Assembly: GCF_048403405.1 (NCBI RefSeq)
Contig: NZ_CP183129.1
Direction: 5' to 3' (one strand)
DNA length: 64,000 nucleotides
From: Escherichia coli
Lineage (GTDB): Bacteria > Pseudomonadota > Gammaproteobacteria > Enterobacterales > Enterobacteriaceae
Part shown: positions 34,879-36,999 of the stretch, piece by piece
Numbering within the stretch: the stretch's first letter is position 1
Layout of the letters: each line of letters begins with the position of its first letter
Notes under the pieces: generated by a model
Databases searched by the model: none
The model's input: the letters and a program-made list of their open reading frames with translations, nothing else
What the model was told of the DNA's origin: nothing
Made by a program: the position numbers and the translations under genes

Positions 34879-35094
34879 ATGAAATCAATGGATAAGTTAA
34901 CAACAGGTGTTGCCTATGGCACATCGGCGGGTAATGCTGGTTTCTGGGCATTGCAGTTACTCGATAAAGTAACTCCGTCACAGTGGGCTGCAATCGGTGT
35001 GCTGGGTAGCCTGGTTTTTGGCCTGCTGACGTATCTGACAAATCTTTATTTCAAGATTAAAGAAGACAGGCGTAAGGCTGCGAGAGGAGAGTAA
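34879..35094 (+). CDS. essQ: class II pinholin (phage 21 S-like) with dual-start motif
   Basis: [71 protein letters not shown]; two TM helices; Met1/Met4 dual start. Confidence 0.85.
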
Positions 35095-35098
35095 TCCA

Positions 35099-35650
35099 AT
35101 GACTCAAGACTATGAACTGGTTGTGAAAGGAGTCCGTAATTTTGAGAATAAAGTTACGGTAACTGTAGCCTTACGGGACAAAAAACACTTTGACGGTGAA
35201 ATTTTTGACCTGGACATCTCGCTGGACCGTGTTGAAGGTGCCGCGCTGGAGTTTTATGAGGCAGCAGCCAGAAGGAGCATCAGACAGGTCTTCCTGGATG
35301 TTGCTGCCGGGTTATGTGAAGGGGATGAGCAGTCGCCGGAAAAGCGCCCCATAATTTTAGAGGCGCAGAATGTGTGGATAACCTACAAAGGAAAGCTACC
35401 GGGAAGAATTACTGGTTCTCTGAAGACGCCACCGACGGCATTGCGGTCAGAAAAAGATGATATTGAATCGCCCATTGAAAAACTGGAGGGCAGCGTCGCT
35501 GATCTGAATAAAAAATTGTCGGTGCTGATTCCTTCTGAAGATGAAAAAAAACGCCGCGATGAGCAGTTTGCGGCGTTTTACGATTATTGCATTGAAGTTA
35601 CTCGCAGGAATTTTGTGAAGATTTTTGAGGAGGGTAAATCTCTTCAGTAA
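35099..35650 (+). CDS. hypothetical protein inserted between holin and endolysin
   Basis: 183-aa ORF with GAGGAG RBS directly after the holin stop; no recognisable motif. Confidence 0.55.
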   Translation: MTQDYELVVKGVRNFENKVTVTVALRDKKHFDGEIFDLDISLDRVEGAALEFYEAAARRSIRQVFLDVAAGLCEGDEQSPEKRPIILEAQNVWITYKGKLPGRITGSLKTPPTALRSEKDDIESPIEKLEGSVADLNKKLSVLIPSEDEKKRRDEQFAAFYDYCIEVTRRNFVKIFEEGKSLQ

Positions 35651-35858
35651 GCTTATTGGCGGACGCTGCAATTAATTCAGGAAGGTCCGCAAGGTCATCT
35701 GTCAGTGGATATGATGAAAAATCGGCGGCAGTTCTGTTAAGAAGCGCTTTAACTAATTCCTTTTCCTTCTCCGGCAACAAGTTGATTAGAGCTACGACTG
35801 CTTGCCTGAGTGCGATTAAATCAGCAAAAGTTTGTTTAGGTAGATTTGTGTAATCCAT
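35598..35858 (-). CDS. hypothetical protein, convergent to the lysis operon
   Basis: 86-aa ORF with GAGG RBS 8 nt upstream of its ATG; helical, acidic; overlaps the previous gene's 3' end by 53 nt. Confidence 0.45.
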   Translation of the reverse strand: MDYTNLPKQTFADLIALRQAVVALINLLPEKEKELVKALLNRTAADFSSYPLTDDLADLPELIAASANKLTEEIYPPQKSSQNSCE

Positions 35859-35971
35859 AGTCGCCTCTGTGTTTATCAGATTGACATCCTCCTCCCGCCA
35901 GTGCCCATCACTGGTGAGGTAAGATTTAACATATCCGGGGATTTGAAGCCGATAAATCCTGATAAATATCC

Positions 35972-36505
35972 ATGAACGTAAAAATCAGATACAGCCTGTC
36001 GGCCGCTGTTCTGGCACTGATTGCCGCCAGTGCTCCTGCCCCTGACATTCTCGATCAGTTTCTGGATGAAAAAGAGGGGAATCACACCACTGCATACCGC
36101 GATGGCTCCGGCATATGGACCATCTGTCGGGGAGCAACGATGGTGGACGGTAAACCTGTTATTCCGGGAATGAAACTGTCGAAGGAAAAATGCGCCCAGG
36201 TTAACGCCATTGAGCGGGATAAGGCGCTGGCATGGGTGGAGCGCAATATAAAAGTTCCACTGACCGAGCCACAGAAAGCCGGTATCGCGTCATTCTGTCC
36301 CTATAACATTGGCCCTGGTAAGTGTTTTCCGTCGACGTTTTATAAGCGGCTTAATGCCGGTGATCGTAAAGGCGCATGCGAGGCGATTCGCTGGTGGATA
36401 AAGGACGGTGGACGTGATTGCCGCATTCGTTCAAATAATTGTTACGGTCAGGTTATTCGGCGTGACCAGGAGAGTGCATTAACCTGCTGGGGGATAGAAC
36501 AGTGA
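35972..36505 (+). CDS. SAR endolysin (T4-lysozyme-like GH24 muramidase with N-terminal signal-anchor-release domain)
   Basis: N-terminal weakly hydrophobic SAR segment [18 protein letters not shown]; catalytic E-8-D-5-T triad in [20 protein letters not shown]. Confidence 0.85.
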
Positions 36506-36999
36506 ATCAGATATTCACGGTGATTTTGCTCGTGTTGGTAGGATTTGTCGTAGGTAATGTCTGGAGCGACAGAGGATGGCAAAAAAAATGGGCGGAGCGT
36601 GATGCTGCCGAATTATCTCAAGAGGTAAATGTCCAATTTGCTGCTCGAATAATTGAACAGGGGCGAACTATATCCCGTGATGAGGCTGTTAAAGATGCAC
36701 AACAGAAAGCCGCTGAAATTTCTGCCAGGGCTGCTGATCTGTCTGATAGTGTTAACCAGCTGCGTGCCGAAGCAACAAAATATGCCATACGCCTTGACGC
36801 AGCGCAGCATACCGCAAATCTTGCCGCTGCCGTCAGAGGCAAAACAACCAAAGCCGCCGAAGGAATGCTCACCAACATGCTCGGAGATATTGCAGCAGAA
36901 GCTCAGCTTTATGCTGAAATTGCTGACAAACGCTACATCGCAGGAGTGACTTGTCAACGGATTTATGAATCTTTAAGAGATAAAAAATATCAGATGTAG
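36502..36999 (+). CDS. i-spanin (Rz)
   Basis: N-terminal TM helix [18 protein letters not shown] then a coiled-coil periplasmic domain; start overlaps the endolysin stop. Confidence 0.85.
36680..36949 (+). CDS. o-spanin (Rz1) embedded in the +1 frame of Rz
   Basis: Signal peptide with lipobox LTSC followed by a Pro-rich mature region; entirely inside Rz in a different frame. Confidence 0.8.

Follow-up and report, generated by a model that had tools for sequence, protein, structure and literature searches.

A Qin-type lysis cassette of Escherichia coli with a phage 21-like pinholin, a predicted SAR endolysin, N15-type embedded spanins, and two interposed accessory genes

The experimental paradigm of host lysis by a pinholin and a signal-arrest-release (SAR) endolysin is the cassette of phage 21 (OL657228), which is annotated with the S21-71 antipinholin, the S21-68 pinholin, a SAR endolysin, an i-spanin, and an o-spanin, and which served as a reference in this work. 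The 68-residue S21 product forms heptameric pinholes of ~2 nm, through which a folded enzyme cannot pass and a cytoplasmic endolysin cannot be released (PMC9636201). Cassettes consisting of a P21-family pinholin, a predicted SAR endolysin, and an embedded Rz/Rz1 pair were also described for the Stx phages (PMC8136144, PMC10462455). Here, the lysis genes at positions 34879-36999 of a 64,000-nucleotide stretch of Escherichia coli DNA (contig NZ_CP183129.1; hereafter, the window) were compared with these systems and with the orthologous genes of the K-12 prophage Qin.

The cassette is the lysis gene set essQ, ydfR, rrrQ, rzpQ, and rzoQ of a Qin-type lambda-like prophage, a set that already has its names, and the locus is very likely the lysis cassette in the late operon of a lambdoid Qin-type prophage of full length, integrated between rspB and ydfJ. 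The cassette, its K-12 gene names, and the pinholin/SAR-endolysin/spanin pathway are thus already known. The features of the cassette lie far beyond chance, as judged from the Pfam scores (PF04971, 4e-34; PF00959, 3e-24; DUF2514, 2e-38) and from an Rz1 frame that is open in six other phages. An earlier reading of the sequence (the original prediction) had described a pinholin of the phage 21 type, a SAR endolysin, and an embedded spanin pair, and had called the system a textbook one. Each of the features it listed was found in its place, and its label was right in kind, but over-generalised and over-extended. Of the six open reading frames (ORFs) in the interval, two occupy the 877 bp between the holin gene (S) and the endolysin gene (R) (35095-35971; 41% of the interval), which is not a classic lysis sequence. 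These two, a long form of ydfR (ydfR-long, of the YdfR/DUF1327 family) and an antisense gene (ORF86), are accessory genes that split the cassette between holin and endolysin; both had been overlooked. Lambdoid cassettes are mosaics, in this case of an S21-type holin, a Stx-phage-type endolysin, and N15-type spanins, so that the attribute "phage 21 type" has to be stated gene by gene: it is true of the holin alone, since the endolysin resembles R21 in its catalytic domain only, and Rz and Rz1 show no significant similarity to the phage 21 spanins.

Relatives of the cassette and the state of its prophage

A 2.4-kb query covering the region found at least a partial match in 4605 of 5426 complete E. 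coli genomes, but was covered to at least 80% in only 201 of them. The best genome match was strain KK19-02 (99.4%), whose PGAP annotation labels the genes as essQ, YdfR family, hypothetical, rrrQ, and rzpQ. Two phages, 2H10 (NC_049950) and PhiR63_1 (PV340573), share 98.4-98.8% nucleotide identity with the window over the 2.4 kb, ydfR-long and ORF86 included. In both phages, the endolysin and Rz1 match those of the window at every residue (100%), as does the Rz of 2H10; the Rz of PhiR63_1 departs from it by one residue, and the holin differs at three of its 71 residues (V11I, A67V, and G70R). Phages with the ydfR-long/ORF86 variant were isolated and deposited as phage genomes, and the occurrence of the same cassette in isolated phages leaves it little discovery value. 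Searches of the literature for the names rrrQ, essQ, rzpQ, and rzoQ returned almost only unrelated matches.

The K-12 Qin prophage has the same gene order as the window, with identities of 71/71 residues for the holin, 165/177 for the endolysin, 149/165 for Rz, and 80/84 for Rz1, the K-12 counterpart of which (RzoQ) is annotated as a putative lipoprotein. The two loci differ between S and R: K-12 Qin lacks ORF86 and carries a YdfR of 103 residues with a stop codon overlapping the start of rrrQ, whereas the window carries the 183-residue YdfR together with ORF86. They also differ in extent, K-12 Qin being a 20-kb remnant and the window prophage being full length. The lysis genes of the window also occur in phage Tritos, which lacks the 663-bp segment (Table 1). 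The Stx phages of the 933W/Sakai type encode endolysins that are 88-91% identical to that of the window; however, their spanins were assigned to the lambda Rz/Rz1 families, whereas the window spanins are of the N15 type, and upstream of the cassette the window has cold-shock genes instead of stx genes. CP-933V-like phages, such as PhiR12_2, resemble the window in having a long DUF1327 gene and an ORF86 homolog between S and R. In phage 21, by contrast, S and R abut, with no genes between them.

The intact lysis system had been taken to support a functional prophage. Because its endolysin, Rz, and Rz1 are all shared with phage 2H10 at 100% identity, the cassette itself is very probably functional, as judged by sequence. 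It is, however, no argument for viability, because the cryptic Qin prophage of K-12 keeps an orthologous cassette; an intact lysis cassette is no indicator of prophage viability, and the support claimed for a functional prophage was weak. That the cassette sits in a prophage unable to make infectious particles, and acts as a lysis module at most or persists as a silent relic like that of K-12 Qin, is a serious possibility, if somewhat short of an even one. The tail-tip gene gpJ (54456-57850, ATG at 54456) has a run of four cytosines at 57470-57473, compared with five in an otherwise identical allele, and the resulting 1-nt frameshift leads to a premature stop at 57632 and a product of 1058 instead of 1131 residues, which is predicted to lose the receptor-binding C-terminus. 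The identical allele is annotated as "frameshifted" in strain Ch1, while the one-base-longer allele is intact in strain Ecol_316. With gene J frameshifted in the same prophage, the intact cassette is not evidence of a viable one. In addition, cspF is frameshifted, the apparently intact orthologous cassette of K-12 resides in its 20-kb cryptic remnant, and the right end of the prophage lies beyond the 64-kb window.

Several observations favor a prophage capable of forming particles. The gpJ frameshift lies in a homopolymer and may be an error of sequencing, although it may equally be real. Most structural ORFs of the window have the lengths annotated in KK19-02, and integrase, terminase, portal, capsid, tape-measure, and other tail ORFs are full length by that annotation. 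Furthermore, endolysin, Rz, and Rz1 are, apart from the single Rz residue, those of the two deposited phages.

The prophage at ~19500-64000, a relative of the K-12 Qin remnant, lies at the rspB/ydfJ site and is full length, with an integrase gene (19579-20874) adjoining rspB, and head and tail genes extending up to pinQ (62882-63472). Its late-regulatory, lysis, and tail regions resemble those of phage 2H10 (90-98% identity), the genome ends of which map to ~38822/38823. The head/packaging module is unlike that of 2H10, and contains DUF1441, a terminase, and a ClpP-capsid fusion.

Table 1. Features of the lysis cassette and their coordinates in the window
Feature	Coordinates	Strand	Description and basis
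Holin gene (essQ ortholog, pinholin)	34879..35094	+	ATG start, 71 residues; PF04971, S21 alignment
Holin TMD1	34897-34962	+	residues 7-28
Holin TMD2	34969-35052	+	residues 31-58
ydfR-long (YdfR/DUF1327 family)	35099..35650	+	183 residues; Pfam DUF1327, phrog_2091
Replacement segment	35299..35961		663 bp; blastn of window vs phage Tritos
Terminator-like hairpin of the ORF86 strand	35540..35579	-	stem-loop 35548-35579, U-run to 35540; inverted-repeat search, RNA fold
ORF86, antisense orphan gene	35598..35858	-	86 residues; phrog_2572, PGAP WP_001557934.1
Endolysin gene (rrrQ ortholog, GH24)	35972..36505	+	177 residues; PF00959
Candidate SAR segment of the endolysin	35990-36043	+	residues 7-24
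Endolysin catalytic triad	36074-36121	+	E35-x8-D44-x5-T50
Rz, i-spanin (rzpQ ortholog)	36502..36999	+	GTG start, 165 residues; DUF2514
Rz N-terminal TMD	36502-36567	+	residues 1-22
Rz1, o-spanin (rzoQ ortholog)	36695..36949	+	84 residues, +1 frame inside Rz
Rz1 lipobox LTSC	36752-36763	+	residues 20-23

Holin, endolysin, and spanins

The protein is a class II holin: Pfam assigned it to PF04971 ("P21 holin S"), with an E-value of 4.4e-34 and a score of 116.7 bits, compared with a cut-off of 26. Its gap-free alignment with S21 (OL657228) contains 59 identical (83%) and 67 similar residues out of 71, and the K-12 EssQ is identical in all 71. Both the holin and S21 begin with MKSMDK and end in the same charged C-terminus, the last 13 residues of the holin being highly charged. 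The nucleotides of the dual start M1-K2-S3-M4, ATGAAATCAATGGA, are identical to those of phage 21. Initiation at Met1 would give a 71-residue antiholin, and initiation at Met4 (34888) would give a 68-residue holin. A search for RNA structures around the dual start that are able to set the ratio of the two products found none that was significant (z 0.63).

The two transmembrane helices that had been predicted for the holin were borne out by two uncharged segments with S21-like profiles (TMD1 and TMD2, for transmembrane domains; Table 1), which match the charge-free stretches of S21 (residues 7-28 and 30/31-58). TMD2 has a Kyte-Doolittle mean (KD19) of 1.72, the same as in S21, whereas TMD1 scores only 0.70, compared with 0.64 in S21, and consists of 57% Gly, Ala, Ser, and Thr in both proteins. 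A plain hydropathy threshold therefore detected TMD2 only, because TMD1 is weakly hydrophobic and falls below it, as it does in S21; a single helix by this naive measure is the expected signature of an S21-type TMD1 and does not refute the two-helix topology. From the 83% identity, pinholes of ~2 nm that give no passage to a cytoplasmic endolysin would also be expected for this holin.

The endolysin is a GH24 muramidase with a T4-lysozyme-like fold. Its predicted E-D-T triad was located at E35, D44, and T50, with the same numbering as in the R21 endolysin of phage 21. The alignment with R21 (34% identity) starts at residue 32 and thus covers the catalytic domain only, so that the N-terminal segments of the two enzymes, each of them hydrophobic, do not align. 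Sequence matches in the PDB were R21 (3hde) and RrrD (4zpu), two enzymes to which the fold also corresponds (see below). The protein is 93% identical to K-12 RrrQ, and its closest phage relatives outside the 2H10 group are the endolysins of Stx-converting phages, which were classified by Pinto et al. as predicted SAR endolysins with pinholin partners (PMC8136144).

The endolysin is likely to behave as a SAR endolysin, as judged from sequence and model features. Its N-terminus, MNVKIR, contributes the basic residues K4 and R6, and is followed by 18 uncharged and weakly hydrophobic residues (56% Gly, Ala, Ser, and Thr) that end before an aspartate and form the candidate SAR segment. This is the composition by which SAR sequences were defined, namely, one to three N-terminal basic residues and then a charge-free, weakly hydrophobic segment rich in Gly, Ala, Ser, and Thr (PMC9239132). 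In the AF2 model (predicted local distance difference test score, pLDDT, 87; predicted template modelling score, pTM, 0.83), residues 11-35 are helical and lie inside the globular body at pLDDT 95-97. The Foldseek alignment of the model extended to 174-182 columns for full-length R21 (3hde) and the RrrD protein of DLP12 (4zpu), and to only 144 columns for the SAR-less form of R21 (3hdf); 7m5i was also matched. These results fit a model in which the N-terminal segment, once released, is incorporated into the folded, active enzyme. The SAR segment of the original prediction was thus upheld by composition and by the model, but not by alignment, since its sequence does not align with that of R21. 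The SAR status of this endolysin type, which is very common in enterobacteria, is a prediction, and the definitive test would be membrane release and activation by the pinholin or by depolarisation (PMC9239132).

The principal alternative is that the N-terminus is a cleavable Sec signal peptide, and that the enzyme is soluble in the periplasm and controlled in another way, for example through its disulfide state or a dependence of its activity on the proton motive force. Much of the N-terminal sequence would suit such a peptide: it has the n-h-c layout of MNVKIR, a 13-residue core, and SAPAP, the hydrophobic core comprises only 11-13 residues, and the uncharged stretch is 18 residues long compared with 24 in R21. 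A rule-based check identified the AxA motifs A19-S-A21 and A21-P-A23, each followed by Pro. Proline at positions near an AxA site blocks signal peptidase I. Among 34 homologs from many enterobacterial genera, which share the N-terminal pattern LSAAVLxLxxAGA[S/P]A[P/S/T], a Pro was found within -2 to +1 of the AxA site in most, with two exceptions that have ASAS without Pro. The weaker sites A19|S20 and S20|A21 satisfy the -3/-1 rule and may possibly be cleavable. There is also a precedent in T4 RI, a presumed SAR protein that turned out to be cleavable (PMC8385771). Three further points weigh against the main reading of the cassette: a literature search for a release, cleavage, or lysis assay of this endolysin type found none, the gene starts without an obvious Shine-Dalgarno sequence (upstream sequence agccgataaatcctgataaatatcc, 35946-35974), and the ATGA stop-start coupling of ydfR and R seen in Tritos and K-12 is lost in the window variant. 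Cleavage is nevertheless unlikely. A removable leader would be expected to appear with low confidence in the model, whereas residues 11-35 were folded at very high confidence; the full-length R21 and RrrD structures align with the model across the N-terminal segment; and, for an endolysin whose pairing with an S21-type pinholin is conserved, the coherent design is a tethered enzyme that is released by depolarisation.

Cysteines 52, 74, 109, 118, 136, 150, 157, and 172 of the endolysin are invariant or nearly so in the 34 homologs, whereas R21 has four cysteines in all. The eight conserved residues suggest a periplasmic enzyme with up to four periplasmic disulfides. For comparison, P1 Lyz is a case in which cysteines are regulatory.

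The GTG start of Rz overlaps the endolysin stop codon (GTGA). Its N-terminal TMD is uncharged (KD19 2.34), and the protein was matched by phrog_312 ("Rz-like spanin") at 3e-58 and by the Pfam family DUF2514 rather than by the lambda Rz family. Rz is 57% identical to gp55 of phage N15 (E 1e-56), in which the motif TCQRIY of Rz is kept. As predicted, Rz1, with its lipobox LTSC, was found wholly within Rz in the +1 frame, extending from 0.39 to 0.90 of the length of Rz, in agreement with the typical span of embedded o-spanins (0.4-0.5 to 0.9-1 of the length of the i-spanin). The signal region comprises 22 residues up to the Cys and ends in the lipobox, which fits the consensus [LVI][ASTVI][GAS]C (PMC6139136), with Val at position +2 and no Asp. 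A GAGG sequence precedes the Rz1 ATG by 9 nt. The mature protein would contain 62 residues, including Cys36 and Cys40 and nine prolines (15%), so that the description of Rz1 as Pro-rich holds only in moderation. Rz1 was matched by phrog_11621 ("Rz-like spanin") at 2e-8, and had no match in Pfam and NCBIfam.

The Rz1 ORF is of full length (84 residues) in N15, Fraca, phiNP, Klebsiella ST846-OXA48phi9.1, and Skarpretter, at 50-69% identity, and also in the close relative Tritos. The lipobox is present in all seven aligned phage Rz1 sequences, that of the window included, and the homologs all keep the CSPTC sequence and a 13-residue motif. That an ORF outside the Rz frame is conserved across genera argues more strongly than any other observation for a genuine Rz1. 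The Rz1 proteins of N15 and the window have the same 84-residue length, a lipobox, CSPTC, and the 13-residue motif, and align over their full length, with 63.5% identity over residues 22-84. Cysteines that are predicted to be periplasmic and available for intermolecular disulfides are present in both partners, as C151, the single Cys of Rz, and as C36 and C40 of Rz1, within CSPTC.

The spanins of phage 21 are likewise embedded in the +1 frame. However, BLASTP detected no significant similarity between Rz and Rz21 (E 0.11), or between Rz1 and Rz1-21 (E 1.1). On their sequences, the pair belongs to the family of phage N15 gp55 (DUF2514), and not to the lambda/21 family. N15 combines its spanins with a different holin (gene 53, 306 nt). 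In a 2018 survey, the N15 i-spanin and o-spanin were singleton families (PMC6139136); more relatives were now found by homolog searches. The alignments with the phage 21 proteins that had been proposed as a check thus gave 83% identity for S21, 34% in the catalytic domain for R21, and no similarity for the spanins.

The analysis directly supports the identities of the genes, their motifs and homologies, the signals of topology, and the dual coding described above. The mechanism is modelled on the phage 21 paradigm, and every one of its dynamic steps is one that we infer. Q-modified late transcripts would extend beyond the cspB terminator, so that the cassette is expressed, with the holin gene giving rise to the 68-residue pinholin (from Met4) and the 71-residue antiholin (from Met1). 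The additional Lys2 of the antiholin would delay the departure of the weakly hydrophobic TMD1 out of the bilayer. Meanwhile, Sec would export the GH24 endolysin, which would stay in the inner membrane without activity, anchored there by an uncleaved SAR segment at its N-terminus. The pinholins would open small channels (~2 nm) at a fixed time, and the proton motive force would collapse. The SAR segment would then leave the bilayer and pack into the catalytic domain, and the enzyme would degrade the murein. Finally, a complex of Rz in the inner membrane and Rz1, as an outer-membrane lipoprotein, would disrupt the outer membrane.

The segment between holin and endolysin

Comparison with Tritos revealed that 663 bp of the window, carrying the 3′ part of ydfR-long and all of ORF86, stand in place of 98 bp of the S-ydfR-R arrangement of K-12 Qin and Tritos. 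A search for repeats flanking the segment, as a signature of mobile elements, found none. The N-terminal ~67 residues of ydfR-long are nearly identical to those of K-12 YdfR, and the remainder diverges from the form of K-12 and Tritos, which has 103 residues and a stop overlapping the start of R. The C-terminal ~65 residues are conserved with a 169-residue form found in PhiR12_2 and CP-933V-like phages. DUF1327 was matched at 4e-43, complete over residues 1-112, and phrog_2091 was matched end to end (183/183, 6e-112). In a 2026 study, residues 1-72 of K-12 YdfR were reported to bind the catalytic half of RNase E, and the protein co-purified with RNA (PMC13232886). The RNase E-binding part of K-12 YdfR is the part kept in ydfR-long.

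ORF86 is convergent with ydfR-long, with an overlap of 53 bp, and was matched over its whole length by phrog_2572 (86/86, 4e-53). Its homologs, at 84% identity or more, were found in E. coli only, apart from one partial match in Salmonella. These homologs differ by several in-frame indels, which are a better coding signal than the count of substitutions; a comparison with PhiR12_2 gave four synonymous and nine non-synonymous changes, and was uninformative. A GAGG sequence is located 5 nt before the ATG. On the ORF86 strand, 19 nt after the stop codon and inside the ydfR-long coding sequence, there is a terminator-like hairpin (10-bp stem and 12-nt loop) with a U8 run. Its folding energy is -17 kcal/mol (z -2.8), a stability reached by 3 of 200 shuffled sequences, and it is kept in 2H10 and PhiR12_2. 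No sigma-70-like site was detected upstream of ORF86 in a promoter scan, and promoter-like sites were fewer in the region overall than in shuffled sequence. The AF2 model of the protein consists of three helices and is of moderate confidence (pLDDT 76). No match to ORF86 was found in Pfam, NCBIfam, or PADLOC, and none with E < 1 was found when the model was searched with Foldseek against BFVD. The label "DUF1823" carried by the PhiR12_2 homolog was not supported (E 0.13; 12.9 bits, compared with a cut-off of 25).

On these features, ORF86 behaves like a small moron, that is, an independently transcribed accessory gene, and ydfR-long and ORF86 are regarded here as accessory genes. A part for the two in the control of lysis, be it in timing, in antisense damping of leaky endolysin, or in RNase E-dependent control of late mRNA, would make the system a variant of the three-step scheme instead of the plain one. 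It would be in line with their location between the S and R genes, which is conserved in Qin-type and CP-933V-like phages, with the convergent orientation, Shine-Dalgarno sequence, and terminator-like hairpin of ORF86, with the binding of RNase E, and perhaps of RNA, by the N-terminal 72 residues of K-12 YdfR, and with the broken translational coupling of ydfR and R; it is improbable, however, given that phage 21 lyses without any such gene, that Tritos has the same lysis genes without the segment, and that ORF86 showed neither a promoter in the scan, nor a fold match, nor homologs beyond E. coli and the one partial Salmonella match. The narrower proposal, that the 663-bp segment is itself a module for control of lysis or late mRNA through RNase E or antisense transcription, and would thereby set the endolysin level or lysis timing, or silence leaky endolysin in lysogens, is quite improbable.

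Flanking genes and transcript signals

The cassette is flanked by genes of prophage Qin, with ydfU, ydfT (Q), cspF, cspB, and ynfU upstream, and cspI, ynfN, and gnsB downstream, and K-12 Qin has the same neighbourhood (cspF, cspB, and ynfU; cspI, ynfN, and gnsB). In the window, cspF (33380-33620, minus strand) has a 1-nt deletion after codon ~27 (GATGG-CGT compared with GATGGTCGT). A second deletion, of 258 bp relative to KK19-02 (~250 bp relative to 2H10), has its junction at 33409/33410 and removes ynfS and the 3′ end of cspF. As a result of the two deletions, cspF is a pseudogene in the window.

Two hairpins are located upstream of the holin gene. One is palindromic (33341-33364), has A/T runs on both sides, and lies ~110 bp downstream of the Q gene, where it is a candidate for tR′. 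The other is a strong intrinsic-terminator-like hairpin on the plus strand (34407-34426), after cspB and ~450 bp upstream of the holin. Late transcripts must pass both, presumably by way of Q antitermination. Rfam cspA-thermoregulator elements were identified on the plus strand at 33749-34141 (158.8 bits) and 37205-37621 (112.8 bits), over the leaders of cspB and cspI, respectively. With such elements in both leaders, cold-shock genes bracket the lysis cassette within the late operon.

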